A stretch of 64,000 nt of DNA from Chloroflexota bacterium (GCA_016838895.1 JAEKNU010000018.1:2207-66206); one strand, 5' to 3'; counted from the first letter of the stretch, positions 9,556-28,318 are shown. Translations and numbers: made by a program. The notes: generated from the letters alone by a model not told the origin.

Positions 9556-9939
9556 ATGAAACGAACCCTCTCCAACACCGCCACAGGCGCCCTGATCGGG
9601 CTGGCGAACACCATCCTTTATACCTTGCTCTTTCCCCTGTACTGGCCGTTTGAATCCTTCGTGACCTTCTTTTCCTTCGACGGTTCTTTTATGTGGGTGG
9701 TGATGCTGGGGTTGGGCTTTGGTGCTGCATTGTTGGCACCCAATATCGGCGTGGGGGCAGTACGCCAAATTGGTCGGGAGATCGCTTCACCCATTGAAGT
9801 GCTCATAGTTCCGCGCCATCAGGTTCGCGATGACACATGTAAAGAGTTTTGGAGCAAATCACAAGTTAGAAAATCATGCTTGAATGCAGGGAATTTCTAC
9901 ATCAAAACCTCTATCCTTCCCCTACACTTTCATATTTGA
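9556..9939 (+). CDS. small hypothetical membrane protein
   Basis: 127 aa with hydrophobic segments (GALIGLANTILYTLLFPLYW, FMWVVMLGLGFGAALLAP). A consensus promoter lies directly upstream. The 3' end overlaps the convergent gene by 29 nt. Confidence 0.45.
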   Translation: MKRTLSNTATGALIGLANTILYTLLFPLYWPFESFVTFFSFDGSFMWVVMLGLGFGAALLAPNIGVGAVRQIGREIASPIEVLIVPRHQVRDDTCKEFWSKSQVRKSCLNAGNFYIKTSILPLHFHI

Positions 9940-11959
9940 TTGGTTCTCCAGCATCGTGTAACAATTTATTTATTTCCCGTTTTAACTCCAAAATGCGGTC
10001 TTCTCGGCCCATGGTGATGGTGTGCCAGCGTTGCAGCTCTTCTATTTGTTCCTTGATTTTGGCTTCGGCCAATTTGCGCTCGTTTATATCTCGGGTGGTG
10101 CCGGCAATGCCGATGATTTCCCCATTTCCGTCATGCATGGGATTCAGAACGACTTCGTAACATCGGATTGTTCCATCTGGTACCGATCCGGTTGTTTCAG
10201 CAATTACTGTAGCATTGGTATCGTAGACTTGTTGATGAAGCGTTGCCCACTCATCACACAAGGCTTTCTGAAACCCCAATTCTTCATGCGTTTTCCCGAT
10301 GATCTGTTCAGGCTTTAAGCCCAGCGTTTTACACAAGTTTGTGTTGGCATGGGTAAAACGACTTTGCCGATCATAACTGTAAATGGAATCCTGGCTGGCT
10401 TCATCGATGAGGTGATAACGTTCCTTGCTCATACGCAGGGCTTCTATGGCTGAGCGGTGTTCGGTGGTGTCAATGATGAAACCCTCAATACCAATCACCT
10501 CTCCGTTTTTTGTAACCGGCCGGCCGGAAAAGGTATGGTAGCCAATACTGCCATCTTTACATTTGCGACTGAAATCCCCTTTTAGATAGCGGCTGTCATT
10601 TTCCATGATGCCTGAAACAAATGCTTTGGCCGCTTCAATGTCTTCAACTTTTTGAATTTCAGTAAAATGATGTCCCAGAATTTCATCCGCTGAATCATAG
10701 CGATGCAATTGTACCCAGGCCTGATTTACATCCTGGATGATGCCATCACAATCAATGAAGAAATATCCTGCATCAGAGTTATCCACAATGGAGCGAAAAT
10801 GTTCTTCGCTGTTCCGCAAGGCCTCCTCGGCCTGATTTTGTTTGGTAATGTCAATGGTATACCCTGCCAGAAGATGCTTTTCCCCTTGCTGGATTGGAAA
10901 CTTGATGGATGTGTAAGTACGGTTGTTAAGTATTTCTTCATCCTGGAATATTCCATCTTTGGAAACCACGTCCCAATCATCGGCACTGATTTTTTGAGCA
11001 AATTCAGGCGGAAACAATTCCTCCATGGTTTTTCCAGCCATCTCACTACCGGGGATACCAATCATATCAATGAAGTTTTCACTGGCATGCAATACTTTAC
11101 TAGAGGTTGGGGTTACTTCTTTTATATATATATAAATAGGGGAATGGTGGATAAATTGAGAAAACATTTCAGTATTGTCTAGTATGGCTTTTTCCACCTG
11201 TTTGCGTTCCGTGATATCACGGCAGAAGCAGATAAGCCGCCCTCCATCAATATTCAAAAAAGTTGCTGAAATTTCCACATCAAATATGCTGCCATCTTTT
11301 TTGCGATGACGTGCAGTAAATAAATCAGAACCATTCTGTATTATTTTTTGGATATGTACCGCTGCCAGTTCAGCATCTTCCACGACATCAAAGTCAGGAA
11401 TACTTAATTGCAGTAGCTCCTCTTTGGTATACCCGAGCATTCTGCAATAAGCATCATTTACATCTATAAATTTCCCCTGGGTATTCAATAACCAAAAGCC
11501 ATCTTTCGTGGTTTGCAGGATACTCTGATAGAAAAAATCTTGATTGTCGATTGGTATGCGGGATTGCTGATCAGTTTTTGTTAAAGACCGGATCAGTGTA
11601 CGAAGGTCAACCTCTATGAAAGGACATGAGAGAAATGCATCAACGCCAGCATCCGCAGCCTGTTGCAGGCTAGCTTGATCTGTTTCAGGGGAGATCAGGC
11701 AAATGACAGGAATTGATTTTGTGGTTGCTTCATTGTTTAGTTTTCTGCACAAAGTGATTGCATCAGGGTTTTTGATTTTTATATCAAGCAGCACTACATT
11801 TGGGCTTTCTGATTTGATTAGCGTGAAACTATTATTTTCATCTGTGCTGGTTAGAATGATTGTATTTGGAAAGGTACGCTCTACTATTTTTCCAACTGAA
11901 TCAAGAATATTGGGATCTTCGCTAACAAAAACAATTTTTAATGAGGTATTTTCCACCAA
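9911..11959 (-). CDS. response-regulator receiver domain protein with four PAS domains and a C-terminal coiled-coil tail (no recognisable kinase or output domain)
   Basis: 682 aa. The REC domain covers KIVFVSED...VVLLDI...VICLIS...AFLSCPF. Four PAS-like units follow, each ending in D(I/T)T(E/K)(R/Q/H)-type motifs. The tail is EELQRWHTITMGREDRILELKREINKLL. Confidence 0.85.
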   Translation of the reverse strand: MVENTSLKIVFVSEDPNILDSVGKIVERTFPNTIILTSTDENNSFTLIKSESPNVVLLDIKIKNPDAITLCRKLNNEATTKSIPVICLISPETDQASLQQAADAGVDAFLSCPFIEVDLRTLIRSLTKTDQQSRIPIDNQDFFYQSILQTTKDGFWLLNTQGKFIDVNDAYCRMLGYTKEELLQLSIPDFDVVEDAELAAVHIQKIIQNGSDLFTARHRKKDGSIFDVEISATFLNIDGGRLICFCRDITERKQVEKAILDNTEMFSQFIHHSPIYIYIKEVTPTSSKVLHASENFIDMIGIPGSEMAGKTMEELFPPEFAQKISADDWDVVSKDGIFQDEEILNNRTYTSIKFPIQQGEKHLLAGYTIDITKQNQAEEALRNSEEHFRSIVDNSDAGYFFIDCDGIIQDVNQAWVQLHRYDSADEILGHHFTEIQKVEDIEAAKAFVSGIMENDSRYLKGDFSRKCKDGSIGYHTFSGRPVTKNGEVIGIEGFIIDTTEHRSAIEALRMSKERYHLIDEASQDSIYSYDRQSRFTHANTNLCKTLGLKPEQIIGKTHEELGFQKALCDEWATLHQQVYDTNATVIAETTGSVPDGTIRCYEVVLNPMHDGNGEIIGIAGTTRDINERKLAEAKIKEQIEELQRWHTITMGREDRILELKREINKLLHDAGEPIKYESVGEG

Positions 11960-12422: not shown

Positions 12423-13511
12423 ATGATTGGCAGCAGAGGTAAGCTGATGATTTTTTATCGAAAATTTCCTCGCATTGCCAGATTATTGGTCCTGTTGATG
12501 ATAGGGACGATTCTCTTTGGTGGTATGTTGTATTTTGTAAAGAATGGACAGCAGCCGGTGTTGTTGTATCTTTATCAGCCGGGTACGGATTATGAAACCA
12601 TTATGCGGTCCAGCCTGAATAGCTCGCCTGAGGTTTTTCTGGCAGAATTTGGCTCCTTGCAGGATATGCAACCTTCGCCGGATGGCAAATGGCTGGGTGT
12701 GATTATTACCGATGCAGATGGTGCCATGCAGGTAGAGGTTTATAACACACGCTCTGCAAAACTGGAAAGCAGCTATGATTGCAGTGATATGCAGTGTTCT
12801 GCTCTGGAATGGAAAACGGACGCCAGTGCGCTGTATTTCCACCAGTTCAGCAATGGCTCTAAAAGCAGTATCCTCTCCTTGAATATAACCACTGACCAAA
12901 TAGAAGAAGTTCCAATTGATGCCCGATACGCGCCATTGTATTTCAGCCCTTCGCCAGACGGACGCTATCAGGTTATATATGATGAAAATGCAAAAGGCTT
13001 CTTTGTGTTAGATAATTGGAAACTGGAACTGATACTGGTGAAATCCGAGGGTGCGTCACCTGTGTTGTGGTTGAATGATCCACTACGTGTGCTGCTGGTA
13101 GCTACTGAGCATGAGGATAAAATTCCGGTTACTCATATCACAGAGATTACACCAGGGACATTACAAATTCGCTACTTGAAAGACAGCGACATAACGAATA
13201 TGGATTTTAATAATTTGGCCATTCATCCTAATGGAGAAGATCTGGTTTTTGGCTGCCGGCCGGTTTTACACAGCTCTTCACGACAATTGTGTGTGAGCAA
13301 TATGACGGAATTCATCGGTGAGCAGTTGACCAATAAACAGTCGCGCAATCATGCCGGGGCAGTGTTTGATAGCAGCGGCACATGGCTGGCATATCAGACT
13401 TATAATCTTGAATCGAGTGCTTCCAAACCAACCATCTGGGTAATGGGCTGGTCCACGGGTTCTACGATACAGGTGGCCGATAATGCCGCCATGCCACGCT
13501 GGATTCCTTGA
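12423..13511 (+). CDS. membrane-anchored TolB-like beta-propeller repeat protein
   Basis: 362 aa with an N-terminal TM helix (LLVLLMIGTILFGGMLYF) and recurring SPDGKW / SPSPDGRY / HPNGEDLVF motifs typical of PD40/WD40-like propeller blades. Confidence 0.55.
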   Translation: MIGSRGKLMIFYRKFPRIARLLVLLMIGTILFGGMLYFVKNGQQPVLLYLYQPGTDYETIMRSSLNSSPEVFLAEFGSLQDMQPSPDGKWLGVIITDADGAMQVEVYNTRSAKLESSYDCSDMQCSALEWKTDASALYFHQFSNGSKSSILSLNITTDQIEEVPIDARYAPLYFSPSPDGRYQVIYDENAKGFFVLDNWKLELILVKSEGASPVLWLNDPLRVLLVATEHEDKIPVTHITEITPGTLQIRYLKDSDITNMDFNNLAIHPNGEDLVFGCRPVLHSSSRQLCVSNMTEFIGEQLTNKQSRNHAGAVFDSSGTWLAYQTYNLESSASKPTIWVMGWSTGSTIQVADNAAMPRWIP

Positions 13512-13518
13512 ATTTGTC

Positions 13519-14253
13519 ATGAAATGGATATACCTTTCTCCTCATCTGGATGATGCAGTTTATTCTTGTGGTGGCTTGATTCACCAACAAGTGCAGCAAG
13601 GCATAGATGTAGAAATATGGACTGTTTTTGCAGGTCAGTTTGATGCTGCAAACCTGACCCCGTTCGCAAAAGATATCCATCAGCGTTGGGGCACAGGTTT
13701 AGAGAGTATTACACTTCGCAAAGCAGAGGATCAGGAAGCTTGCACATTATTGGGAGTAAACACAAGTTATTTTGATTTTCAAGATGTAATCTATCGTTTC
13801 AAACCCGAAACTTCGCAAGCAGAAATTATTGAGAATGATGATTTATTCCGTGAGTATCATCCTGGCGATAATGCATTAATGGAAAGCATCACACAGGTTG
13901 TACGCCAGGCAGCACTGAGAATGCAACAGATACAGCTCTGTATCCCTTTGGGGTTGGGAAATCATATTGATCATCAAATTGTCCGCAGGTCTGCGGAAGC
14001 ACTGATAGATTCATATCCAATCCTCTATTATGCGGATTTCCCTTATGTAATCCGATCACAAGCACAGCCTGATGGTTTGCAACAGCGCCAGTTCGCGTTA
14101 TCTGAGGCAGATGTGGAAATCTGGTGTCAGGCGGTTGCGATCTATAAATCCCAAATAAGCACCTTCTGGGATGACGAAGCCCAAATTTGTGAAGAAATTT
14201 TTCCGTATTGGAAAAAGGGCGGGGGAAGCTGCTTGTGGTTTCACGAACAATGA
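13519..14253 (+). CDS. PIG-L family deacetylase (LmbE-like)
   Basis: ATG 13519 gives MKWIYLSPHLDDAVYSCGG (the PIG-L SPHxDD motif), and a later HIDH is present. The track start 13483 would overlap the previous gene. Confidence 0.75.
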   Translation: MKWIYLSPHLDDAVYSCGGLIHQQVQQGIDVEIWTVFAGQFDAANLTPFAKDIHQRWGTGLESITLRKAEDQEACTLLGVNTSYFDFQDVIYRFKPETSQAEIIENDDLFREYHPGDNALMESITQVVRQAALRMQQIQLCIPLGLGNHIDHQIVRRSAEALIDSYPILYYADFPYVIRSQAQPDGLQQRQFALSEADVEIWCQAVAIYKSQISTFWDDEAQICEEIFPYWKKGGGSCLWFHEQ

Positions 14254-14342: not shown

Positions 14343-14597
14343 GTGAAAAATATGGACAAACAATCAGTTTGGGCAAAATGGGCTCGAAACTTGCATCGTT
14401 GGGATATGGATGTTCCTGCTGAACTGTTCCTCAAATCGGTAGGACCACTGTCAATCGTCTTTGCACAAGGGTTGGTTTTGTTAAAACCGGTTATCAGCTC
14501 AAGCCCGGAATGGGATATCCTTACAGAGACCATCGAAAACGCTGACGAACGCAGGTTGTTCAGCCAACTACTGCACGAAGGAAATTGGGATGAATGA
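14343..14597 (+). CDS. small hypothetical protein (operon gene 1)
   Basis: 84 aa (GTG 14343, or ATG 14352) with one hydrophobic segment VGPLSIVFAQGLVLLKPVI. Its stop overlaps the next gene start by 8 nt. Confidence 0.5.
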   Translation: MKNMDKQSVWAKWARNLHRWDMDVPAELFLKSVGPLSIVFAQGLVLLKPVISSSPEWDILTETIENADERRLFSQLLHEGNWDE

Positions 14598-15354
14598 TGC
14601 AATGAGTACTTTTTCCGGCAATCTGATATTATTGGGCGCGATTTTATTGCTGATCATTTTTTCATTTCCGAATTTGATCAAGCATCGTCGCACGGTACGT
14701 CCCATCACGGCCATGACCAAAATGAAAAAAGCACTGGCTACTGCGGTTGAAGCTGGCAAAAGAATCCATATTTCAATGGGTAATGCCCCCCTGACAGAGA
14801 AAAATTCAGCGGCCAGTTATGTGGCCCTTAATACAATGAAGAAATCTGTACGCATGGCAACCCTGGGCGATCGTCCATTGATTGCTACCAGCGGTGATGG
14901 CCCACTTTCCTTATTAACACGTAATGGACTGGAATCAGCTTATCGGGAACGTAATGCTTCTGATCTATATGAAATTTCACAGGGTCGCCTGACTGGTTTG
15001 ACCCGTTTTTCCTATTTAGCCGGGACAATCTCGGTTATCAGTAATGAAAAAGTATATGCTAATCTGCTGCTTGGAGATTTAGGACCGGAAACTTTATTAA
15101 TGAGTCAAGCAGTACGGCGTAGTAATGGGCAGCTTTTGCCTGCCTCCAGTTCCATTCCGGCTCAGGCAGTGTTCTATGCAGAATCCGAAGACACCTTGAT
15201 TGGCGAGGATGTTTTTGCCGTAGCGGGGTATTTGCAGGAAGATCGTAATCAGCATGCTGGTTTGTGGGTGCAAGATATTCTGCGCTGGGTATTAATTGGC
15301 GTTATGCTGGTGGGTGGTATTATGAAAATTGCGCAATTGGTGATGGGAGGCTGA
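14590..15354 (+). CDS. hypothetical bitopic membrane protein (operon gene 2)
   Basis: 254 aa. TM helices at the N-terminus (LILLGAILLLIIFSFPNLI) and C-terminus (ILRWVLIGVMLVGGIMKIAQLV) flank a ~190-aa soluble domain. Confidence 0.6.
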   Translation: MNDAMSTFSGNLILLGAILLLIIFSFPNLIKHRRTVRPITAMTKMKKALATAVEAGKRIHISMGNAPLTEKNSAASYVALNTMKKSVRMATLGDRPLIATSGDGPLSLLTRNGLESAYRERNASDLYEISQGRLTGLTRFSYLAGTISVISNEKVYANLLLGDLGPETLLMSQAVRRSNGQLLPASSSIPAQAVFYAESEDTLIGEDVFAVAGYLQEDRNQHAGLWVQDILRWVLIGVMLVGGIMKIAQLVMGG

Positions 15355-15360
15355 TCGAAA

Positions 15361-15978
15361 ATGAAATCTCCTGTATCAACCGCAATTGCTATTGGGGTAG
15401 GATTCATGGTTTTGCTGGGTACGATTTTACCCATTCCAATCTTGAGCTCTATTCGTGAGGCATTGGTTAATTGGGCAGTGATTATTGCCGGTGTTGGGGC
15501 ATTGGTTGCTATTGTTCATTTTGTTCGCTTACATATTCGCAAAGTATCCCAAACGCGTGAACGAGACGGTTATAGTTTTCTACTGATTATTGCGTTTATG
15601 GGGACTTTCTTGTTTGGTGTGTTTTATACACCGGCCGATATTTATTTTCGTCCGATTGTAACCTCGATTCTGATGCCGATTGAAACCAGCCTGCTGGCTT
15701 TACTGGCTTTTTCGTTGGCACTGGCGGTGTTTCAGGTGGTTCGCAAACGAAGAGGATTTTCAACATTGTTATTCCTCATCAGTTTGATTTTTTTCCTGTT
15801 GTATTTCTCCAATGGATTACCTGTTCAATCTCAAATTCCGGCATTACGACAAGGCTTATTATTTTTGGAACGCCTGCCGATTGCCGGGGCACGCGGTTTA
15901 ATTTTAGGGATTGCATTGGGCAGTCTCGTAACCGGTATACGCATTCTTTTGGGAATGGACAGGCCGTATCAAGGATAG
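15361..15978 (+). CDS. hypothetical polytopic membrane protein (operon gene 3)
   Basis: 205 aa with about 5-6 hydrophobic helices. Gaps to the neighbouring genes are 6 nt and 3 nt. Confidence 0.6.
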   Translation: MKSPVSTAIAIGVGFMVLLGTILPIPILSSIREALVNWAVIIAGVGALVAIVHFVRLHIRKVSQTRERDGYSFLLIIAFMGTFLFGVFYTPADIYFRPIVTSILMPIETSLLALLAFSLALAVFQVVRKRRGFSTLLFLISLIFFLLYFSNGLPVQSQIPALRQGLLFLERLPIAGARGLILGIALGSLVTGIRILLGMDRPYQG

Positions 15979-15981
15979 CCG

Positions 15982-18900
15982 ATGGCAGAAAATCGCTGTA
16001 GTATGTGTGGAAAACCAAATGCGGCAGATGAATCCGTTTGTGAGCATTGCGGTGCACGTCTGACCCCGATGAAGCCCTCAAATGCAGGGAAATTCACCGG
16101 TGGTTTGAGCTGGCTGGATGCCTTTAGGGAAGAAACCGGTGGGCCAGATGAGGGTGAAACGTCAGTTGAGCAGGAAGCAAGCGCTGAACCCGCTGCAACA
16201 GAAGAAGATGATGAATCTCCGGAATGGTTGCAGAATATTCACCAACGTACCGATTCTGATGGTGCAGAAGAAGATGAGATCGAAGAGAATGATGAAATCC
16301 AACTGGAGGATCAATCTTTTGTTGATACACAGGCAGAGGGGGATGTTCCGGACTGGTTGAGGAATTTAAAAGGGGATGATGAACAGCCTGCTGTGGAAGA
16401 AGAAAAAAGTGAAGCAGTTGATGAAGATATACCACATTGGGCAGATGCATTAAGGACATGGGATGCAGAGGAAACCGCAGATGATGATTTTTCAGTTGAT
16501 GAAGAATCTGATGATGGGTTATTAGAAAGTAAACCAAGAGTGACTGAGTGGTTTAATCGAATTTTACCGGGGAATGAACAAGAATCGCATGAGGAAACTG
16601 AAGAGCAGGTACCTGCTGCCCAGGTTCCCCAGCAATCTCAACAACCATCCAATTTCATCGACGATAGTGCTTCGTCCGCATCTATGGATGAAGTTGAGAT
16701 TGAAAATTGGCAAGAAAGATCAGCAAAATTAACCTCTGTGACAGAATCATCAAGCGATGAAGAAGAAGTTCCATCCTGGTTGCAGGGAGATGAGGAAACC
16801 GCGGCTGAGGATAGTTCCCAGAGCGTATTAAACTGGTTGCAAAAACTGGATGAAGAAGAAGGCGGTAGACAAAAAGCTCGCTATTGGATGGGCGAAGTTG
16901 ATACGGGTGATTTACCAGCGGAACGAACACTTGATCCCCGTTTTGCAGAACCAGAAGAAAAAACAGAATCAGTTTATGATCCATTTTCAGAAGGGGATGC
17001 TGATAGTGCAGGTGCTACTCAGTTCTTTTCAGAAAGCGAATTAGCTGCTGATGACATGGATGAGGAATCACAAGAACCTGGTCATACCATGATCTTTGAG
17101 CAACCCGACGATGATGAAGCCATACCGGATTGGATGGCAGATCAACCTGGTGGTCCTGCAACCTTAAAAAGTGGAAGATCAGCTCACACAGTGGGACTAA
17201 GTGGTTTAGATGACGCTGATCTGGGTATGGATTTACCTGAAGAGGAGCAATCTCCCTGGGAGAAAGCAGCAAAGGAAGGAGATGTGCCCGCCACCTCAGA
17301 AAAACCAGCATCACCAAAGATGACAGCCGCATTAACCGGGCTTGATGAGGAAGAAAGTGGGGATCAAGAAGAAATTCCACCCTGGTTGCAAGATGTTGAA
17401 ACACCCACGACACCAGTTCGTAAAGAAACGCCAATCATGACCGCTGAATTAGGTGATTTTGATGATGAAGATTTAGGTGATGATACAACGGATGCTGAAA
17501 CTCCTCCATGGGTTCAGCAGACCCCCTCAGATCGTGAAGAAACAAAACCCAGAATGCCAATCATGACGGCTGAATTATCCGGTCTGGATGATGAAGATTT
17601 GGGGATGGACTTACCGGAGGATGAGATTCCTCCCTGGTTGAAAGAAGTTGAACAGCGTGAAGAAGATGAAAAGCCTGGCACACCCATCATGACGGCAGTT
17701 TTGGATGATCTGGATGAGGATGATGAGGATGAAGAAACACCTCCGTGGATTTTAGATACAGAAATTCCAGCTGATGAGAAGAAACAATCTTTAATGACTG
17801 CGGCAAAAAGCGATTTGGGTGAGACTTCATTTGAAACAGAAGAAGTGTCACCATGGATGCAGAATATCGATGAATCTACATCTGAAGCGAAGCCCGCACC
17901 AATGATGACGGCTGAGTTGTCCGACCTGGATGAAGGGAATGATGGGGATGATGAAGAGATTCCACCCTGGATGCAGGATGTCGAAGAGGTAGCAGTGCCT
18001 AAAAAAGGCACAACAATGATGACTGCGGCATTGACAGGATTAGATGATGAAGAATTAGACTCTGTGGATGATGCTGCATTGCCATGGATGCAGGAGATTG
18101 AGGAAGTTGTTCCGCCTGCAAAAAGTACACCCTTGATGACCGCGGCGCTGACAGGTTTAGATGATGAGGATCTGGGGACGGATGAAGAGCCGGCCTGGAT
18201 GAAGGATATCGAAGAAGTAACACGTCCATCAATCGAAACACCGTTAATGACTGCTGCATTAACTGATTTGGATGAGGAATTTGGTGACGCTGTCGCTGAT
18301 GATATTCCGGATTGGATGAAGAATATTGAAGAAACTCAGCAACCGCCAGAAACAACTCAATTAGAGCATGCTGAAGCCGTTGTCAAAGATGTGAAAACTT
18401 CCCCATCGCCTAAGCCTACGTTCATGGATGATTTGCAAGAGAAGAAAGAAAAATCTCCTGGCGAACCAACAATTGATGAAATGTATTCGGATCAATTGTT
18501 AACCACCGGGAAACTGAATGAAATGGTTGGCAAACCAGGTGCTGCAGGAGCAGTGGAACCAGAAGAGCAATCAATTGATGAAATGTTCTCAGATCAATTG
18601 TTGACTACCGGTAAACTTAATGAAATGGTAGGCCAACCGCCAACAGTAGATGATTCCGCAGATGATGAGAAATCCGTTGATGAGATGTACTCAGATCAAT
18701 TGCTGACGACTGGTATTTTGAATGAAATGGTAGGCCAACCGCCAACAGTGGATGATTCCGCAGATGATGAGAAATCCGTTGATGAGATGTACTCAGATCA
18801 ATTGCTGACGACTGGTATTTTGAATGAAATGGTAGGCCAACCGCCAACAGTGGATGATTCCGCAGATGATGAAAAATCTGTTGATGAGATGTACTCTGAT

Positions 18901-20793
18901 CAATTGCTGACGACTGGTATTTTGAATGAAATGGTAGGCCAACCGCCAACAGTGGATGATTCCGCAGATGATGAAAAATCTGTTGATGAGATGTACTCTG
19001 ATCAATTGCTGACGACTGGTATTTTGAATGAAATGGTAGGCCAACCGCCAACAACAGAAGATCAATCAGTTGACGAAGCATTCTCAGAGGATTTACTCAA
19101 TACCGGCCGTTTACGACAACTCTCTGGAGACTCAGAATCTGCTGACGATATGACAGTAGATGAAGAATTCTCCTCTGAATTATTGACCACAGGCCGGCTG
19201 CGCGATCTTTCTGAAGAGGATGCAGCGGCAACAAATGTAAGTGATGAGGAAGATTGGCTGGCCAGTTTTGCTGAAGAAGATTCAAAAGCATTAACAGCTG
19301 GTGATGATATGCTTGTCGGCGCAAGCGTCGCAGATGAAGATGAAGTACAAGATGAAATTGCCCCGACATCAGATATGCCGGTTTGGTTGACTGAATTAGA
19401 ACCGGAGGCAGTGGAAACAGAACCATCCGTAAAGCCAGCCTTTACGTTTGACGAAGAACCAGATATGACGGCCAAGGTGGAAGAATCTCATCCTTTTGCT
19501 GGGGATGATTTACCAAATTGGCTTTCTCCTGATGTTTGGCAGGCAAATGGTCAGAAGGATGAAACTGCCCCTGCCAAACCACAAGCAGGTGGAGTTCAGA
19601 ATATTCAATGGGAATTAGAAGGCTTGGAAAAAGGTGAATTGCCTTCCTGGCTTCAGCAGGTTAAACCAGATCAACTGGTTACCCAAAAACGATTAACGAC
19701 TGCAACTGCAGATGGCGAGACTCAGTCTGAAAAAGTAGGTCCATTAGCGGGATTGAGGGGTGTATTGCCGGCTCGTGATATGTTAACAAAGCACCGCAAA
19801 CCCCCGGTATATTCTGATCAAATCAATTTATCGGAACGGCAATCCAACCGTATGCAAGTGCTTTCCCGCATGATTGAAAGCGAAGCCAAGAATCGAATGT
19901 TAAAAGTTGGTGAGGAAAAGATTCCGTTCAATATGATGCGTATCATTTTTGCACTTATTTTAGTCATTGTAATGATTTTTCCATTGAGTGGTTTACTGCC
20001 AATTACTGGTAGTTTACCGTTTGCGGCAAGTGATCCGGTGATTGCTTTTTATAATGAAGTTGAACAATTTCCGGCAGATAGTTCTGTGCTGTTAGTGATG
20101 GATTTTGAAAGCGGCTATACTGCTGAAATGCGCAGTTCAATGGATGGCTTATTATTGCGATTGTATGAAAAGAATATTGATGTGGCCATGATTTCTACCT
20201 TACCAACCGGGCCAGTCATCGGTGAGGAAATTGCACAGGATATGTGGTTGCAATATTTCAATGTACATCCCGAAATCAATGTTGGCGATTATGAAACACG
20301 CGTATTAAATATGGGATATTTGCCAGGTGGTTCGGCTGCTATGCTGCAATTTGTGCGTTATCCGCAGCAGAGCGTTAAGTATGGTTTCCGCTATGAAAAA
20401 GAACCGACCTCTGTTTGGCAGTCTCAGGTATTATCTGATATTCAGAGCACCAATGATTTTGCAGGTGTGGTGGTCATTACAGATTCGGCGAATGTAAGCC
20501 GTAATTGGATTGAACAATCCACACTGTATTCCCTGGATAATATTCTCTTCATTACCAGTGCGCAAACCTATCCGCTGATTTTACCGTACTGGCAATCCGG
20601 TCAGGTAAAGGGCCTAATTGCCGGAATTTATCAGGGATATACTTACCGAACATTATTAAATCAATCCACTGGATTGGCTGCCCAATGGTATTCATATCAA
20701 TTTGGTATGAATCTGGTGACCATTGTTGTTATTCTACTGACTGTTGTCTTTATCATTCGTAATGCTATACCACGCAGGAACACGTCGCGTTAA
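15982..20793 (+). CDS. giant acidic Zn-ribbon / PxW[LM]-repeat protein with C-terminal membrane-flanked domain (operon gene 4)
   Basis: 1603 aa. It starts with an N-terminal CSMCGKPNAADESVCEHCGARL zinc ribbon, followed by ~1200 aa that are very rich in D/E. This part carries about 20-25 copies of [PDE]-x-W-[LM] motifs (IPPWLQDV, IPDWMKNI and similar), ~10 MTAELSGLDDEDLG units and 8 DEMYSDQLLTTGxLNEMVG units. A TM helix (MMRIIFALILVIVMIFPLSGLL), a ~330-aa domain and a terminal TM helix plus RRNTSR follow. Confidence 0.8.
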   Translation: MAENRCSMCGKPNAADESVCEHCGARLTPMKPSNAGKFTGGLSWLDAFREETGGPDEGETSVEQEASAEPAATEEDDESPEWLQNIHQRTDSDGAEEDEIEENDEIQLEDQSFVDTQAEGDVPDWLRNLKGDDEQPAVEEEKSEAVDEDIPHWADALRTWDAEETADDDFSVDEESDDGLLESKPRVTEWFNRILPGNEQESHEETEEQVPAAQVPQQSQQPSNFIDDSASSASMDEVEIENWQERSAKLTSVTESSSDEEEVPSWLQGDEETAAEDSSQSVLNWLQKLDEEEGGRQKARYWMGEVDTGDLPAERTLDPRFAEPEEKTESVYDPFSEGDADSAGATQFFSESELAADDMDEESQEPGHTMIFEQPDDDEAIPDWMADQPGGPATLKSGRSAHTVGLSGLDDADLGMDLPEEEQSPWEKAAKEGDVPATSEKPASPKMTAALTGLDEEESGDQEEIPPWLQDVETPTTPVRKETPIMTAELGDFDDEDLGDDTTDAETPPWVQQTPSDREETKPRMPIMTAELSGLDDEDLGMDLPEDEIPPWLKEVEQREEDEKPGTPIMTAVLDDLDEDDEDEETPPWILDTEIPADEKKQSLMTAAKSDLGETSFETEEVSPWMQNIDESTSEAKPAPMMTAELSDLDEGNDGDDEEIPPWMQDVEEVAVPKKGTTMMTAALTGLDDEELDSVDDAALPWMQEIEEVVPPAKSTPLMTAALTGLDDEDLGTDEEPAWMKDIEEVTRPSIETPLMTAALTDLDEEFGDAVADDIPDWMKNIEETQQPPETTQLEHAEAVVKDVKTSPSPKPTFMDDLQEKKEKSPGEPTIDEMYSDQLLTTGKLNEMVGKPGAAGAVEPEEQSIDEMFSDQLLTTGKLNEMVGQPPTVDDSADDEKSVDEMYSDQLLTTGILNEMVGQPPTVDDSADDEKSVDEMYSDQLLTTGILNEMVGQPPTVDDSADDEKSVDEMYSDQLLTTGILNEMVGQPPTVDDSADDEKSVDEMYSDQLLTTGILNEMVGQPPTTEDQSVDEAFSEDLLNTGRLRQLSGDSESADDMTVDEEFSSELLTTGRLRDLSEEDAAATNVSDEEDWLASFAEEDSKALTAGDDMLVGASVADEDEVQDEIAPTSDMPVWLTELEPEAVETEPSVKPAFTFDEEPDMTAKVEESHPFAGDDLPNWLSPDVWQANGQKDETAPAKPQAGGVQNIQWELEGLEKGELPSWLQQVKPDQLVTQKRLTTATADGETQSEKVGPLAGLRGVLPARDMLTKHRKPPVYSDQINLSERQSNRMQVLSRMIESEAKNRMLKVGEEKIPFNMMRIIFALILVIVMIFPLSGLLPITGSLPFAASDPVIAFYNEVEQFPADSSVLLVMDFESGYTAEMRSSMDGLLLRLYEKNIDVAMISTLPTGPVIGEEIAQDMWLQYFNVHPEINVGDYETRVLNMGYLPGGSAAMLQFVRYPQQSVKYGFRYEKEPTSVWQSQVLSDIQSTNDFAGVVVITDSANVSRNWIEQSTLYSLDNILFITSAQTYPLILPYWQSGQVKGLIAGIYQGYTYRTLLNQSTGLAAQWYSYQFGMNLVTIVVILLTVVFIIRNAIPRRNTSR
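17176..18350 (+). repeat. about 10 degenerate 38-42-aa coding repeats (x-MTAELSGLDDEDLG-acidic-IPPW[LM]Q-x)
   Basis: Read from the translation: SGLDDADLGMDLPEEEQSPWEKA; KMTAALTGLDEEESGDQEEIPPWLQDV; PIMTAELGDFDDEDLG...TPPWVQQ; PIMTAELSGLDDEDLGMDLPEDEIPPWLKEV; and so on to LMTAALTDLDEEFGDAVADDIPDWMKNI. Confidence 0.8.
18673..19053 (+). repeat. 102-bp in-frame tandem repeat, 3.7 near-identical copies (core of an 8-unit array 18469-19215)
   Basis: Units start at 18673, 18775, 18877 and 18979, and each encodes SVDEMYSDQLLTTGILNEMVGQPPTVDDSADDEK. Copies 1-2 share gagaaatccgtt...tactcagat and copies 3-4 share gaaaaatctgtt...tactctgat, an AABB pattern. More diverged units flank both sides. Confidence 0.9.
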
Positions 20794-20808
20794 AGGATCA
20801 CGTTGTTT

Positions 20809-21489
20809 ATGAATGCTGAATTTCTTTGGACATTACTAGGATTGCTGCTTACGCTGATTGTGCTTAGCTATCTGTTTGGTGATCACGTGTTCTTCCGCCT
20901 GGTTAGCTATATGTTTGTGGGTTGTGCAGCAGGATATGTGGCCGTGATTGTAATTTATCAGGTTATATTACCGCGCCTGGCCTGGCCGCTGCTATCCGGG
21001 ACGAGTGGTGAACGCATTCTTGCATTGGGTGGTCTGGTGTTATCAATTTTGCTATTTAGTCGATTGGTGCCCGGTCTCTCCCGTGCCGGTAATATTTCGT
21101 TGGCATATCTAGTCGGTGTTAGTTCAGCGGTGATTATCAGCGGCGCCATTTACGGTACGATCATACCGCAGGTTAATGCAGTTACCACAACCATTGATTC
21201 TGGCTTGCACGGCACAACGGTTTTGTATCGTATCCTGGAAGGCATAACATTCCTGATTGGCAGTGTTTCCTCGTTGGCTTTTTTCCATTATGGGACGAGA
21301 GCAAAAAGCCTCGATAAAAAACGATTGCCGATTATTGAATTTTTTGCCCGGATTGGTTCCGGATTTATCTCCATTACATTTGGGGCAGTATTTGCTGGTG
21401 TTTATGCTGCAGCTTTATCTGCTCTTATGGATAGATTGGTTTTCATTCTCAATTTTTTCCAAAAAATTTTACCGGGTGTGTTTAGCTGA
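20809..21489 (+). CDS. hypothetical polytopic membrane protein (operon gene 5)
   Basis: About 226 aa from ATG 20809 (the track uses TTG 20803) with ~6 hydrophobic helices. The stop TGA shares its A with the next ATG (TGATG at 21487-21491). Confidence 0.6.
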   Translation: MNAEFLWTLLGLLLTLIVLSYLFGDHVFFRLVSYMFVGCAAGYVAVIVIYQVILPRLAWPLLSGTSGERILALGGLVLSILLFSRLVPGLSRAGNISLAYLVGVSSAVIISGAIYGTIIPQVNAVTTTIDSGLHGTTVLYRILEGITFLIGSVSSLAFFHYGTRAKSLDKKRLPIIEFFARIGSGFISITFGAVFAGVYAAALSALMDRLVFILNFFQKILPGVFS

Positions 21490-23219
21490 TGACAACAAAG
21501 CCAATGAAAGAGACCTTATCCCTGCTGGCCATTGACCTCGGAACAGTGTATACGAGAGTTTTCCTGTTTGATGTTGTGGAGGGTCAATATAGTTTTATAG
21601 CCAGTGGTGCCGCGCCCAATACGATGAGTAAACCCTATTGTGATATCAATGAGGGTTTGCACAGAGCTTTTACGCAACTGGAAGAAAAAACTGGTCGCAG
21701 TATTATTGATTCTCAGGCAAAATTGATGTTTCCCTCAACAGGCGAGGGTATAGGTATTGATCGTCTGGTATTAACCTATTCCGCTGGTCCTGATGTGCGT
21801 ATGATTCTGGTTGGACTACTATCTGAAGTTTCACTGGACAGTTTAAGAGTTGTCGCCAATTCGGTTTATGGCACGGTTGTCGATGCCATTGGTGTGGGTG
21901 ATCCACGAAATATTGATGAGCAAATTGATACTGTTTTACGGCTTGATCCACAAATTGTGGTTTTTGCCGGGGGAACAGAGCAGGGCGCCAGCCGTTCCGT
22001 GTTACGCATGGCAGAAATGATTTCCATCATTTTAAAAGTGGTACCCGAAGATAAAAGACCGGAAATACTATATTGTGGGAATGCAGCTTTGGCGGAAAAA
22101 ATTAAAGAAGGTTTGGAGCATTGGACGCCGGTAGCTGTCTCGAAAAATATTCGGCCTTCTTTGGATGAAGAAGCCTACATGGATGCGCAAGCTTTGCTAT
22201 CCCAAATGGTATTATTCCAGAAAAGTAAAAAAATTGGCGGTATTGAAGAAATCTCGCAGATTTGCAGTACCGAACCGGAATCAACTGCAATGGGTTTCCA
22301 TCGCATTATCCGATATTTGGGTACCGAGAGTAAAGAGATGCGTTGTGTGCTTGGCGTAGATTTGGGCGCTTCCCATGCGACAATGGCATTTGCGGATCGA
22401 ACACAATCCATTATGGATGTATTTGATTTTGGGCTGGGCACTTCGATGTCAATGATTGCCAGGAAGGCCAGTCTGGAACACTTGTATCAATGGATTACAC
22501 ATGATATTTCACCTGGAGCAGTGCAGGACTATATCTGGCAGAAAAAGTTATTACCGGGGCAAATCCCTTCCAGTACGGCTGCATTGGATATTGAGCAGGC
22601 GGCAGCACGAGCAGCTTTGCAGATGATGATGGCGCATATGCAGAAACGTTGGCCGGAAGAGAAAGCTAATTATGACCCCATTCTTGTTTCAGGCGCAGTT
22701 TTCGGAAATGTTGCTCATCCATCAGATAGTTTACTGATGGTGTTGGATGGTATTCAACCCGTGGGTATAACGACTGTAACACTAGATACCAACGGCATCA
22801 CCGGCACATTGGGTACTGCTGCAAAGATACATCCGGCGATTCCTGTACAGGTTCTGGAGTCGGGTGCATTTTTAAATTTAGGAACTGTGATTTGTCCGCT
22901 TAGTAATGAAAAAATTGGAAAGCCGGTTGTGCGTATTCGATATGAAACCGAAGATGGGCAAAAGGATGACATTAAAGTGATGAAAGGAACCGTTCAACAT
23001 ATTCCCATCACACAGGGAAAGGCAGTGCGTATTATGGTTTCAGGTATTGGACGCACTACTGTGGATCCTTTGGTTGGGAAAGGCATAGCTGCTTTCAGAA
23101 CCATTGGTGGTGTTTGCGGTCTTGTGATAGATGCGCGAGGTAGGCCGTTCGATTTGCCTGTTGATTTACAGGAGCGCCGGGAGTTGTTACTCTCCTGGAA
23201 GAATGCTTTAAAGACATAA
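21489..23219 (+). CDS. GlmL/MutL-family actin-fold (ASKHA) ATPase-like protein (operon gene 6)
   Basis: 576 aa. LLAIDLGTVYTRVFLFD is a phosphate-1 DxGxxxT motif. YSAGPDVRMILVGLLSEVSLDSLRVVA and LDPQIVVFAGGTEQGASRSVL parallel the GlmL blocks SSAAGGLRM..GL..ELT..AA and PDIILLAGGTDGG. A second VLGVDLGASHATMAF motif is also present. Confidence 0.65.
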   Translation: MTTKPMKETLSLLAIDLGTVYTRVFLFDVVEGQYSFIASGAAPNTMSKPYCDINEGLHRAFTQLEEKTGRSIIDSQAKLMFPSTGEGIGIDRLVLTYSAGPDVRMILVGLLSEVSLDSLRVVANSVYGTVVDAIGVGDPRNIDEQIDTVLRLDPQIVVFAGGTEQGASRSVLRMAEMISIILKVVPEDKRPEILYCGNAALAEKIKEGLEHWTPVAVSKNIRPSLDEEAYMDAQALLSQMVLFQKSKKIGGIEEISQICSTEPESTAMGFHRIIRYLGTESKEMRCVLGVDLGASHATMAFADRTQSIMDVFDFGLGTSMSMIARKASLEHLYQWITHDISPGAVQDYIWQKKLLPGQIPSSTAALDIEQAAARAALQMMMAHMQKRWPEEKANYDPILVSGAVFGNVAHPSDSLLMVLDGIQPVGITTVTLDTNGITGTLGTAAKIHPAIPVQVLESGAFLNLGTVICPLSNEKIGKPVVRIRYETEDGQKDDIKVMKGTVQHIPITQGKAVRIMVSGIGRTTVDPLVGKGIAAFRTIGGVCGLVIDARGRPFDLPVDLQERRELLLSWKNALKT

Positions 23220-23262
23220 ACATTGGTAGAAATCTTGCAATAAGTATTTTGGGAAAACAAGT

Positions 23263-24318
23263 ATGTTAGCGAAACAACCCACACTCATTCGACCTTTGGT
23301 AAGAATAACCCGAAAGCGTACACTATCGCATGCGGGTGAGGTTTTGGTATCTGCCGGTCAGGAAGTAAACGGTAGTGAAGTGATTGCACAAACCAATTTG
23401 CATGATCATCATTTATTGGTGGATGTAAAACAGGCTCTGCAGCTAAAGAAAGTAGAAGAAGTTACAAAAATACTAAATTGCAAATTAGGTGAGCGGCTGG
23501 AAGAAGGCGATATTATTGCTGAAACCGGCGGCATATTTAATCGTGTGGTACGAGCACCCATGAATGGTGTTGTAGCTGTTATCTCTGGCGGAAAAGTGAT
23601 ACTAGAGGTACAGGGCAGGCGCGAGCAGCTAAAAGCAGGTTACAGCGGCATTGTTGTTGAAGTGATGCATCGCAGCGGCGCTGTTATTCAATGTCAAGGT
23701 GCGCTGGTTCAGGGTGTTTGGGGTAATCATCAGAGTGGATCCGGATTGTTAATGCAGATCGGAAATGATGCATCTTCAGAACTGGATCCGAAGTTTTTAT
23801 CCGTTGATTTGCGAGGAGCAGTTTTGTTTGCAGGAACATTGCGACATGTTGATGTTTTGCGAAATTTGGCCAGTATGAATATACGTGGGTTAATTTTGGG
23901 AACAATGTCCGCGGCGTTAATTCCGATGGCAATGGATTTAAAATTTCCTGTACTATTAACGGATGGATTTGGTAACATAGGCATGAATCTTGCAGCATAT
24001 CAGATACTGAATACGAACGTTAATCGGGAGTTAAACCTGATTGCCAACCCGCCAAATGAATTAACGGGCAGTAAACCGGAAGCATTTATACCATTACCGG
24101 CAGACGGAGAAGAACCGAATGACGTACTCAGTTTAAAACCTGGCAGAATGGTACGTATCCTGTCTTATCCAAATCAGGGACAGATTGGTGAAATTCTGCG
24201 TATTCATACGGGTAAAGTGAAATTGTCCAATGGTATTTTAGCGCGAGCCGCTACGATACAATTGACAGATAAAAAACAAATTACGGTACCTCTTGAAAAT
24301 CTGGATTTGCTGGAATAA
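23263..24318 (+). CDS. hypothetical protein with lipoyl/biotinyl-like barrel-sandwich hybrid N-terminus and SH3/KOW-like C-terminus (operon gene 7)
   Basis: 351 aa. VLVSAGQEVNGSEVIAQT ... EGDIIAETGG...VRAPMNGVV resembles hybrid-barrel motifs. The C-terminus is LKPGRMVRILSYPNQGQIGEILRI...KVKL. Confidence 0.45.
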   Translation: MLAKQPTLIRPLVRITRKRTLSHAGEVLVSAGQEVNGSEVIAQTNLHDHHLLVDVKQALQLKKVEEVTKILNCKLGERLEEGDIIAETGGIFNRVVRAPMNGVVAVISGGKVILEVQGRREQLKAGYSGIVVEVMHRSGAVIQCQGALVQGVWGNHQSGSGLLMQIGNDASSELDPKFLSVDLRGAVLFAGTLRHVDVLRNLASMNIRGLILGTMSAALIPMAMDLKFPVLLTDGFGNIGMNLAAYQILNTNVNRELNLIANPPNELTGSKPEAFIPLPADGEEPNDVLSLKPGRMVRILSYPNQGQIGEILRIHTGKVKLSNGILARAATIQLTDKKQITVPLENLDLLE

Positions 24319-24350
24319 GCAATTCCTGAACATGCAGTAGGAGAAGCGCT

Positions 24351-24986
24351 ATGTCTAATTTTGATGATAATTTATTTGAAGATTTTGATGCATTCGAGGG
24401 TTACGAGGACGATCAGCCCGCCGGTAAAGCGCCAAAACCCAAAAGCAGCAACCGAAATTTCTGGATTGCGATTGGTGTGATTGGTGTCTTTGTGCTATTA
24501 ATTGTTGCAGCCATGGCAGTTTATATGCTGGTGATTTATCCTCAACAGCGTAGTGAGCAGGTACAACAGGCTGCCCAAATCAATGCGCAAAATACAATGA
24601 CTGTTCAAGCTGCCACCGAAATGGCTCTGGCACAGGCATTATTACAGACCCCCAGTGCAACGATGGTTGTAGATACTGAAGAACCGACCAATACGCCGGT
24701 AGTCGTTTTCCCAACTGCAACTGAAGAACCGACTATGGCAGCCGAAGAAATGGAAGCTGCTGCAGGCGGTGATCTGACCTACAGGACGCAAACCGTGGCC
24801 GCCTTACTTACCCTGGCTGCTGGCGGCAGCGTGGAAACGGGAACGCCGGATGGGCAAACAACAACAGCTTTACCGACGGCTGGTTTTGCGGATGAAGTAG
24901 GTTTGCCTTCGTTGTTTGGCATGGGCGTTTTATTAATTGGTTTGGTATTTGTCGTAAGGCGTTTACGTACTGCTGCATCTTCGTAA
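24351..24986 (+). CDS. doubly anchored Ala/Thr/Glu-rich protein with LPTAG-type C-terminal signal (operon gene 8)
   Basis: 211 aa. It has an acidic N-terminus (DDNLFEDFDAFEGYEDD), a TM helix (FWIAIGVIGVFVLLIVAAMAVYMLVIY) and an A/T/E-rich region. The C-terminus is LPTAG (24870-24884), a hydrophobic stretch LFGMGVLLIGLVFVV, then RRLR. Confidence 0.55.
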   Translation: MSNFDDNLFEDFDAFEGYEDDQPAGKAPKPKSSNRNFWIAIGVIGVFVLLIVAAMAVYMLVIYPQQRSEQVQQAAQINAQNTMTVQAATEMALAQALLQTPSATMVVDTEEPTNTPVVVFPTATEEPTMAAEEMEAAAGGDLTYRTQTVAALLTLAAGGSVETGTPDGQTTTALPTAGFADEVGLPSLFGMGVLLIGLVFVVRRLRTAASS

Positions 24987-25065: not shown

Positions 25066-25098
25066 AACAGCGGCTCTATACGGGCCGCTGTTTTGTTT
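25066..25098 (+). terminator. rho-independent terminator of the eight-gene operon
   Basis: 9-bp stem aacagcggc / gccgctgtt with a 9-nt loop, followed by ttttgttt. Confidence 0.7.
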
Positions 25099-25101
25099 AA
25101 C

Positions 25102-25127
25102 AAAAAAGCGACTCACATGGAGCCGCT
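25102..25127 (-). terminator. rho-independent terminator of the convergent mutase gene
   Basis: Minus strand reads agcggctc-catgt-gagtcgct (8 bp including one G-U) followed by TTTTTT. Confidence 0.6.
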
Positions 25128-27851: not shown

Positions 27852-28318
27852 ATTCTTAAACTCGCTACTAGCCGCTGTGGATTTTCTAAACAATCAAAAG
27901 CTGCATAGATGTTTGGCAACAATAAATCGGCTGCCATTAGGGTTTCTTTGGCAATGCCTTCTTTAGATAATATGCCAATACCGATGGCAGCTATGTGCAG
28001 CATACCTGCGTCATTGGCACCTTGTCCGATAGCGACTACAGTATCCGGATTTAAATTTTCTACAAATCTGGTTTTCTGCTGCACTTCATCTCCGGGGGTT
28101 AAGAGATCAGCCGGAAATCCAAGGGCTTTATCTATTGTATCTTGTTTTCCGTGTGTATTGGCAGTGATTAAGTGTACTTTCACTTGCTTTCTCAAGGTTT
28201 GTATTCTATCCGGGATATCGTCCAGCAACCTGCCATCCAGAGCCAGGGTTCCATTTACGTCAAAGACGACATGTTCAATCTGAACCTTTCCTTTTCCGAG
28301 AATGTGCAGGGAAATCAT
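27848..28318 (-). CDS. HAD-superfamily protein resembling a free-standing P-type ATPase P-domain (COG4087-like)
   Basis: 156 aa. FDVNGTLA matches the DxxGTL motif, and AIGQGANDAGML...MAADLLL parallels the P-type ATPase GDGxND...AADxxL motif. Confidence 0.65.
   Translation of the reverse strand: MISLHILGKGKVQIEHVVFDVNGTLALDGRLLDDIPDRIQTLRKQVKVHLITANTHGKQDTIDKALGFPADLLTPGDEVQQKTRFVENLNPDTVVAIGQGANDAGMLHIAAIGIGILSKEGIAKETLMAADLLLPNIYAAFDCLENPQRLVASLRI

Follow-up and report, generated by a model that had tools for sequence, protein, structure and literature searches.

A giant acidic zinc-ribbon membrane protein carrying an array of conserved tryptophan motifs within a seven-gene operon of Anaerolineae

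The window analysed in our study is a stretch of 64 000 nucleotides from a Chloroflexota bacterium (GCA_016838895.1, JAEKNU010000018.1:2207-66206), and its element of interest is a very long open reading frame (ORF), g4, which lies within an operon of seven genes, g2 to g8 (Table 1). An initial annotation, made from the sequence alone, had placed a long ORF at positions 15982..20793 of the plus strand, and this was confirmed, as the translation was free of stop codons over 1603 amino acids (aa) and no other long ORF was found in the region. The deposited record of the protein (MBI9049445.1) comes from a contig of an Anaerolineaceae metagenome-assembled genome (MAG) and is annotated only as 'zinc ribbon domain-containing protein'. 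Our analysis resolved this protein into an N-terminal zinc ribbon, a hyper-acidic tail holding many copies of a short tryptophan-centred motif, and a C-terminal module in which a domain is flanked by two transmembrane (TM) helices.

The tail contains 27 tryptophans, 21 of which are directly followed by L, M, I, V or F. When the observed counts were compared with those from 5000 shuffles of the tail, P.W[LM] was seen 12 times against 0.22 expected, P.W[LMIV] 14 times against 0.38, and [DE]ΦP.WΦ (Φ, hydrophobic residue) 11 times against 0.03, which is an enrichment of 30- to 300-fold; the observed count was attained in 0/5000 shuffles for any pattern. There were 16 W motifs with proline at either -1 or -2. 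The 20-25 PxW[LM] motifs proposed initially therefore hold as a number of W-Φ islands (21), whereas the count for the strict motif is lower, at 12-16. Linear-motif peptides include EEIPPWLQDVEE, GELPSWLQQVKP, TGGLSWLDAFRE, GPLAGLRGVLPA and RKPPVYSDQI.

A family logo, for which 906 windows centred on Trp were taken from homologous tails, was dominated on its upstream side by [ED] at -4 (61 %), L/V/I/M at -3 (~58 %), P at -2 (73 %) and D at -1 (59 %), and on its downstream side by L at +1 (73 %) and L/M/I/F at +4 (~60 %), with R the commonest residue at +5 (19 %). This describes a conserved short linear motif (SLiM), [DE]-Φ-P-D-W-L-x-x-Φ, which is probably a proline-capped amphipathic turn that shows W, L and Φ on one face. 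Conservation of the motif was quantified in an alignment of three close relatives over the non-repetitive first 445 aa, where identity was 50 % in the W windows (-4 to +5) and 17 % elsewhere (Fisher p = 3e-11), so that in close relatives the motif is approximately three times better conserved than the linkers surrounding it. The positions of the terminal copies are also constrained: the first W falls 20-55 aa downstream of the zinc ribbon in most homologues and the last motif a fixed 26-31 aa upstream of GPLxGLxG across homologues, so that a variable array is held between two positionally fixed copies.

On the 1.6 Mb of loci scanned, the motif appears to be specific to the focal family. The background in all other ORFs was 0.3 per 1000 aa, and the only non-focal ORFs with at least 3 motifs were the upstream fragments of split focal genes. 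Two such genes, from two species, were seen in loci L050 (4589-5944) and L042 (8527-9447), each divided into two ORFs with the zinc ribbon and PDWL array on the upstream piece; these are frameshifts or assembly errors, and may be pseudogenes. A search of a 5.8-billion-protein index with a 51-aa profile of concatenated motifs returned 416 candidates and one meaningless match.

The presence of a probable zinc ribbon at the N-terminus was upheld, although the spacer between its knuckles is of 10 residues rather than the 11 first given, as read from the cysteine positions (C6-x2-C9-x10-C20-x2-C23). Membership of the Zn_Ribbon_1 (PF13240) and PF13248 ribbons is defined by two CxxC knuckles with 10-15 residues between them and a score above the Pfam gathering cut-off; the focal ribbon scored 21.5 bits against Zn_Ribbon_1, for which the cut-off is 25. 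The cysteine pattern is kept in 70/82 homologues, and PF13240 is precomputed on P0022, P0024 and P0027. The hyper-acidic region of ~1200 aa described at the outset corresponds to aa 36-1230, which comprise 28 % D+E and 5.6 % K+R and carry a net charge of -268. With a mean hydropathy of 0.403 against a Uversky order/disorder boundary of 0.494, this composition falls on the disordered side, and the tail is predicted to be disordered. Acidity of the halophile type, affecting the whole proteome, was rejected, as the C-terminal domain and the neighbouring proteins are of ordinary composition.

Four sections can be distinguished along the tail (Table 1), and the two in its middle consist of repeat families that were absent from the initial annotation. 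The composite repeats of section 2 follow the consensus P-[IL]-M-T-A-x-L-x-x-L-D-[DE]-E, an acidic spacer and (E/I)-P-P-W-[LM]-Q-[DE]-[VI]-E; because their DNA copies are 44-82 % identical, they are old duplications and safe in assembly. The repeats of section 3 follow S-V-D-E-M-Y-S-D-Q-L-L-T-T-G-x-L-N-E-M-V-G, with matches confined to the close relatives P0001 and P0060. A 4HB_MCP match in the focal protein was discarded, as it was below threshold, contained no significant stretch and lay inside a type-B repeat. Section 1 includes three islands without PxWL, at aa 302-316, 338-342 and 355-360 (~16885-17061), with the sequences ARYWMGEVDTG(D/E)LP, VYDPF and ATQFF(S/T)E. These are identical in three expanded relatives and may be extra linear motifs for other partners.

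Homologues recovered with the C-terminal 392 aa as query were ~540-690 aa in length and kept the zinc ribbon, 1-6 PDWL motifs and the TM-domain-TM module. With one genome scanned per species, the family was found in at least 127 species, and all record titles that name a lineage gave Anaerolineae or Chloroflexota, with examples in Bellilinea caldifistulae (a cultivated bacterium with the operon, locus L018), Anaerolinea thermophila MAGs, Candidatus (Ca.) Villigracilis and Ca. Desulfolinea. Ordinary homologues span ~540-1070 aa, with a median near 830, a motif count of 1-18 and a D+E content of 18-30 %, and the length of the tail varies about seven-fold across homologues, from ~190 to 1300 aa. 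An exhaustive phmmer search with the tail against 1.84 billion representatives yielded three true relatives, namely P0060 (1779 aa, 51 % identical), P0061 (1398 aa, 49 %) and the partial P0001, which is 78 % identical and whose scrambled C-terminus suggests a frameshift. The two long relatives have the same repeat types as the focal protein in differing copy numbers, P0061 having more composite units and zero type-B units. The other matches from this search were giant acidic low-complexity proteins, such as the RCC1-like repeat protein P0063, and were rejected as compositional. The comparison of these sequences indicates that the focal protein and its two long relatives (1398-1779 aa) represent a small, hyper-expanded clade of the ordinary family, with a tail enlarged by two lineage-specific repeat types.

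The arrangement of TM helix, domain, TM helix and terminal RRNTSR at the C-terminus was as originally described, with topology prediction locating the two helices at aa 1321-1339 and 1574-1592. The size given for the domain (~330 aa) was not, since only 234 aa lie between the helices and the remainder is a conserved cytoplasmic juxtamembrane segment. Two motifs in this segment had been missed, GPLAGLRGV and KPPVYS, in which G42, L44 and G46 are invariant and P43, L47, G49, V50, K62, P63, P64, Y66 and S67 are conserved at 90 % or more; their low predicted local distance difference test (pLDDT) values suggest that they too are linear motifs. An AlphaFold2 (AF2) model of the C-terminal module, based on 52 sequences, had a mean pLDDT of 80 (87-97 in the domain core) and showed a doubly wound alpha/beta sheet of six strands with two flanking TM helices, in agreement with the alpha/beta character that had been suspected and indicating a Rossmann-like fold. 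The conserved residues of this domain (FDYE..GE, STxPxGP, NLGYxPGG, DF..V.V.T, ARxWIEQ, SAQ and PYY) fall at the C-terminal ends of the strands, where in the model they would occupy the usual ligand site of Rossmann-like folds. The focal protein has no signal peptide, basic residues precede TM helix 1 and RRNTSR follows TM helix 2, and by the positive-inside rule the domain is therefore predicted to face outwards.

Foldseek comparison of the module with the PDB returned generic Rossmann folds only (signal recognition particle GTPase, the N-domain of glucose-6-phosphate dehydrogenase and LOG), with a best E = 3e-3 and TM-scores of <=0.3, and no family assignment was made from these matches. Sequence and profile searches of Pfam, NCBIfam and the PDB likewise found no family for the module. 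The C-terminal domain is thus not a member of a well-known family in these databases, and the initial statement that no characterised function is known for such a protein stands. It had also been suggested that g2, which has a similar TM-domain-TM layout, might be a distant paralogue of the module, and this was not supported by our data. BLASTP gave no meaningful similarity between the two (E = 0.03 over 53 aa), hhalign of 77 C-terminal modules against 65 DUF6754 proteins gave a probability of 3.7 %, and hmmscan of the module against Pfam and NCBIfam did not match DUF6754 (PF20539), the family of g2. A single-sequence AF2 model of g2 reached a pLDDT of 42. The TM helices of g2 are at aa 12-30 and 230-252, and because KHRRTVR follows the first of them, its domain is predicted by the positive-inside rule to be cytoplasmic, on the opposite side of the membrane to the focal outside domain.

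The operon was examined across a set of 82 Anaerolineae loci (L001-L082). Gene order from g2 to g8 was identical in 82/82 wherever the contig reached, with g4 found in all 82 loci, g5 in 81, g6 in 79, each of g2, g3 and g7 in 76, and g8 in 67. The g6 product matches PF13941 over the whole model at 172.5 bits (cut-off 27), and 50/50 of its orthologues also match; in these the motifs DxGxxxT, GGT.GG and DxGA are invariant and the extra C-terminal domain is always present; on the basis of these motifs it is likely to be active as a nucleotide-binding ATPase. GenBank names it 'glutamate mutase L' (MBI9049447.1). While g6 shares PF13941 end to end with the GlmL/MutL accessory proteins, it differs from them in its score against the NCBIfam GlmL equivalog (67.5 bits, cut-off 475), in its extra C-terminal domain and in the absence of the glutamate mutase genes glmS/glmE, none of which was found near g6 or in the conserved operon of the 82 loci. 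As no mutase genes accompany it, g6 does not appear to be a glutamate mutase accessory, and the name is probably a family label that misleads as to function. The FtsA model matched 1/50 g6 orthologues, weakly.

For the soluble protein g7, a match to the Cpl-7 'lysozyme' (E = 1.6e-6) was rejected, as it was the sum of three ~10-bit matches, all from the same 29 aa, to three CW_7 repeats of identical sequence, and a CW_7 identity was rejected with it, Pfam CW_7 matching 1/45 orthologues at E = 0.04. The sorting signal of g8, consisting of an LPxTG-type motif, ~10 polar residues, ~18 hydrophobic residues and RRLR, was found in 48/67 orthologues and is represented in the window by LPTAG, FADEVGLPSLFGMGVLLIGLVFVV and RRLR. 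It begins with an acidic segment of 35 aa and a TM helix, an arrangement that resembles a signal anchor rather than a classical signal peptide, and from these features g8 may tether the membrane to the peptidoglycan wall. PDB sequence and profile searches with g2, g6 and g7 gave nothing significant, and literature searches on DUF6754, PF13941, DUF2118, PDWL/PxWL and Anaerolineae FtsZ found nothing on the operon system.

A tail-less form of the protein, P0051 (273 aa), consists of the TM-domain-TM module only. Four related metagenomic loci (L083-L086) of another lineage, with a GC content of 47-56 %, have the tail-less gene order DUF6754-g3-g4C-g5, at 8600-11445 in L083, where the DUF6754 protein scores 277 bits on the Pfam model. 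No g6-, g7- or g8-like genes were found in the flanks of the three tail-less loci that reach 6-10 kb downstream, the fourth contig ending within g5. The distribution of these genes indicates that the four membrane genes form a portable core, and that the zinc ribbon and acidic tail, the ATPase, g7 and g8 occur together in Anaerolineae. Because the tail-less clade is without g6-g8, the tail may be read as a multivalent recruiter of the g6-g8 proteins. This contrast is the principal evidence for a tail that acts together with g6-g8. In L083 the set has neighbours concerned with peptidoglycan turnover (NlpC/P60, LD-carboxypeptidase S66, MR_MLE epimerase, Amidase_3, S11 DD-carboxypeptidase and a beta-lactamase-fold protein), which may indicate a wall-related role for the core module.

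We propose, with belief and doubt in equal measure, that the focal protein is a bitopic-plus membrane scaffold belonging to an envelope complex that is conserved among Anaerolineae, and that its multivalent tail recruits partners encoded in the operon. The initial annotation had read the architecture as a membrane-tethered docking platform, disordered and multivalent, and the disordered composition, the variation in length, the family-wide motif and the identity of 50 % in motifs versus 17 % elsewhere support this reading at the level of comparative sequence. From the anatomy, conservation, operon structure and phyletic pattern described above, we infer the following topology, binding, partners and cellular process. 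The zinc ribbon would be cytoplasmic, together with the acidic tail along its full length, TM helix 1 would lead outward to the Rossmann-like domain at the cell wall, whose conserved ligand-type crevice would face the wall, and TM helix 2 would return to leave the basic C-terminus inside. The tail would act as an intrinsically disordered polyanion displaying many copies of the motif, capturing cytosolic partners by avidity and concentrating them at a membrane complex with DUF6754, g3 and g5. The actin-fold ATPase g6 and/or its companion g7 would be the likeliest partners, and the LPXTG-type g8 may tie the assembly to the wall. In the focal clade, the motif has been multiplied by duplication of units and joined by two lineage-specific repeat types, giving higher valency and reach.

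Several points weigh against recruitment of operon partners by the tail. Charge complementarity singles out no partner, since g6 has a mildly acidic pI of ~6 and that of g7, at ~8.2, is only slightly basic, and the motif could have as its target a hub whose gene lies outside the operon, for example FtsA, SepF or another protein. The co-occurrence of the tail with g6-g8 rests on a comparison of two clades and amounts to one evolutionary event. Furthermore, the MTAxL..LDDE and DEMYSDQLLTTG repeats are lineage-restricted and are left unexplained by a recruiting role.

One precedent for the logic of the motif is the tail of FtsZ, DYLDIPAFLRKQAD, in which I374 and L378 mediate binding to the actin-fold FtsA, to ZipA and to other partners (PMC4117426). 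Its receptors include FtsA, ZipA, MinC, ZapD, ClpX and SlmA, with I374/L378 being critical for FtsA, ZipA and MinC (PMC4117426). In both systems a disordered linker leads into a short amphipathic peptide whose core is acidic-Φ-P-x-aromatic-L; Φ(-3) and L(+1) of our motif correspond to I374 and L378, and the receptor FtsA is of the actin fold, as is g6. However, FtsZ has a single C-terminal copy on a tubulin-like GTPase, whereas here 1-20 internal copies are placed in the N-terminal tail of a membrane protein without a GTPase domain, W replaces F, the basic tail after the motif is usually absent, and binding is putative.

This resemblance supplies the strongest alternative, namely that the W motifs mimic the FtsZ tail and bind its general receptors (FtsA, SepF, ZipA-like) rather than operon proteins, with the complex being tied to, or in competition with, the divisome of these filamentous bacteria. 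The core [DE]-Φ-P-x-W-L matches D-I-P-A-F-L of the FtsZ tail at five consecutive positions, both critical residues included, and in both proteins the motif comes after a disordered linker. A match of 5-6 residues may nevertheless arise by convergence or chance, W stands in place of F, the basic residues found behind the motif in FtsZ are usually missing, no FtsZ signature was found in the 82 loci, and the co-occurrence of the tail with g6-g8 is left unexplained. We regard this mimicry as unlikely.

A second precedent comes from gliding in Myxococcus, where the membrane protein GltJ of the Agl-Glt machinery recruits MglA, AglZ and MreB by means of its zinc-finger domain and cytosolic motifs (PMC11135422). 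Like the focal protein, it is membrane-bound and carries a cytosolic zinc finger or ribbon at the N-terminus, adjoining a linker, and it belongs to a machinery in which motifs recruit partners that include the actin-like cytoskeleton. The two are unrelated in sequence, and the Anaerolineae protein differs in arraying its motif and in having a Rossmann-like outside domain. The NCBIfam GltJ model (NF033761) gave no match to the focal protein at E <=0.1 and only a weak match to the low-complexity region of g8, and no GYF domain, MglA, AglZ or other Glt/Agl gene was found in the operon. The FtsZ tail and GltJ are thus precedents for the logic of the system, and neither is a family relationship.

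Bitopic membrane proteins also hold an actin-fold protein at the membrane in the PilN/PilM and RodZ/MreB pairs, through a short conserved cytoplasmic peptide of INLLPW type (Pro, then an aromatic residue) in PilN and a small cytoplasmic domain in RodZ. These differ from the system described here in having single binding sites, no acidic array, and other outside domains and operons, and g6 belongs to the GlmL/MutL branch rather than to the PilM/FtsA or MreB branches. Eukaryotic endocytic scaffolds such as Eps15 and epsin display many DPF/DPW/NPF motifs of 3-6 residues on long disordered regions and work by avidity; the comparison is one of analogy only, as the domain of life, the receptors and the order of the motif (DPW versus PDW) all differ.

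A bolder extension of the scaffold proposal, which we offer as an unlikely speculation, is that the operon encodes a previously unrecognised envelope-spanning machine of Anaerolineae. FtsZ-tail-like arrays would recruit a GlmL-branch actin-fold ATPase to a four-protein membrane core, which an LPXTG stalk would couple to peptidoglycan, making a cytoskeleton-to-wall system for growth, septation or cell-cell cohesion of multicellular filaments that evolution could tune through the number of recruiting peptides. As filamentous bacteria, Anaerolineae abound in sludge, sediments and the subsurface; very little of their cell biology has been explored. Our study turns an odd ORF into a defined system with a SLiM of clear logo, a fixed seven-gene operon and a natural tail-less clade for comparison. 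Should the ATPase or the division machinery prove to be recruited by the motif, the protein would be among few bacterial SLiM scaffolds based on avidity, and DUF6754 and the GlmL branch would gain a function; should neither be recruited, the protein would still illustrate cleanly how, in nature, repeats can rapidly expand a disordered region around motifs that stay conserved.

It is improbable, in our estimate, that the tail serves only as a non-specific polyanion, whether an entropic spacer or brush or a calsequestrin-like buffer of divalent cations, with Trp making weak interfacial contacts with the membrane. A net charge of -268, a length free to vary and fast-diverging linkers would all be expected of such a polymer, but bulk charge would not require a sharp, positionally fixed logo of ten residues to be conserved throughout a bacterial class, acidic flanks are unfavourable for binding to an anionic membrane, and ordinary members contain only 18-30 % D+E. 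Similarly improbable is a transmembrane sensor or regulator, in which the outside domain would sense a ligand in the wall or medium and the zinc ribbon and tail would form the output, for example by sequestering a regulator as zinc-binding anti-sigma (ZAS) factors do. The order of cytoplasmic zinc module, TM helix and outside domain would suit this role, the conserved polar residues cluster at strand ends as in ligand-binding Rossmann folds, and a PAS response regulator is encoded upstream; against this, the conserved operon has no sigma factor or DNA-binding gene, no zf-HC2/ZAS match was found in Pfam or NCBIfam, the PAS regulator is not conserved with the operon, and an array of 1-20 motifs is unexpected under 1:1 sequestration.

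It is scarcely credible that the long ORF is an assembly or annotation artefact of mis-assembled repeats, for although the source is a MAG contig with four to five near-identical 102-bp units (98-100 % identity) and exact repeats of 150-200 nt, a unit of 34 codons leaves the reading frame intact under any copy-number error, all remaining repeats are just 44-82 % identical at the DNA level, family members are homologous to both flanks of the ORF, and the 1398-aa and 1779-aa orthologues, from independent assemblies, share its architecture and repeat types. The 1603-aa ORF is a genuine gene. Its only uncertain part is the copy number of the 102-bp units at 18575-19053 (4.7 copies by TRF, 96-100 % identical), which may be off by one or two units (34 aa each), because such near-identical exact repeats lie in a short-read MAG.

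Table 1. Features of g4, its operon and the surrounding genes; positions are those of the window
Feature	Position	Strand	Basis or remark
Operon g2-g8	14590..24986	+	Gaps <=43 nt; g5/g6 overlap
g2: DUF6754 protein, TM / ~200-aa domain / TM	14590..15354	+	PF20539, 80 bits vs 27-bit cut-off
g3: 205-aa polytopic membrane protein, no family match	15361..15978	+	Also kept in tail-less clade
g4: focal ORF	15982..20793	+	1603 aa; stop-free translation; sole long ORF in region
Zinc ribbon CxxC-N10-CxxC (aa 6-27)	15997..16062	+	Pfam Zn_Ribbon_1, 21.5 bits
Tail section 1 (aa 36-443): sparse W islands, fast-evolving linkers	16087..17310	+	Composition and alignment of relatives
First W island GGLSWLDAFRE, adjoining zinc ribbon	16096..16146	+	100 % conserved in P0060 and P0061
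Tail section 2 (aa 444-790): nine composite 35-42-aa repeats	17311..18351	+	DNA copies 44-82 % identical
Tail section 3 (aa 830-1091): eight 29-34-aa repeats, SVDEMYSDQLLTTGxLNEMVG	18469..19254	+	Lineage-specific
Tail section 4 (aa 1092-1230): four W motifs DWLASF, PVWLTEL, PNWLSP, PSWLQQV	19255..19671	+	All four kept in P0001, P0060, P0061
Membrane-proximal motif ELPSWLQQVKP	19636..19668	+	Family consensus ELPSW(L/V)xAMRP; P and W near-invariant
Juxtamembrane motifs GPLAGLRGV ... KPPVYS	19738..19815	+	Family conservation
TM helix 1 (aa 1321-1339)	19942..19998	+	TM prediction; helix in AF2 model
Rossmann-like alpha/beta domain (aa 1340-1573), predicted outside cytoplasm	19999..20700	+	AF2 model
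TM helix 2 (aa 1574-1592) and basic cytoplasmic end RNAIPRRNTSR	20701..20793	+	TM prediction
g5: 228-aa polytopic membrane protein, no family match	20803..21489	+	81 loci
g6: GlmL/MutL-family ASKHA (actin-fold) ATPase with ~120-aa extra C-terminal domain	21489..23219	+	PF13941
g7: 351-aa soluble protein, lipoyl-like barrel-sandwich hybrid and KOW-like domains	23263..24318	+	Profile searches
g8: acidic cytoplasmic N-terminus, TM, Pro/Thr-rich stalk, LPXTG-type sorting signal	24351..24986	+	LPTAG here
Terminator-like hairpin, 11-bp stem and T-run, ending operon after g8	25066..25102	+	
Response-regulator receiver with four PAS domains, 682 aa, no recognisable output domain	9911-11959	-	Divergent, upstream
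TM-anchored protein, weak PD40/beta-propeller signal	12423-13511	+	Beside operon in 0/82 loci
PIG-L-family deacetylase	13483-14253	+	With operon in 9/82 loci
PGM/PMM-family phosphohexomutase, convergent, just after operon	25155-26615	-	Same position in L001, L002
DUF389 membrane protein, Pro/Thr/Ser-rich linker, C-terminal bacterial SH3_3	26670-27893	-	

The wider neighbourhood contains housekeeping genes, including arg genes, tRNA synthetases, gatB and hrcA-grpE-dnaK-dnaJ, by which a mobile or defence island was ruled out. Upstream of the operon, the PAS regulator is not conserved beside it in other species, and the frequencies with which the TM-anchored protein and the PIG-L deacetylase accompany the operon (Table 1) indicate that neither is part of the conserved unit. 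On the other side, the position shared by the phosphohexomutase in two further loci shows that synteny extends past the operon. Near the operon, the DUF389-SH3_3 protein that follows adds a second protein that faces the wall and has a low-complexity stalk.

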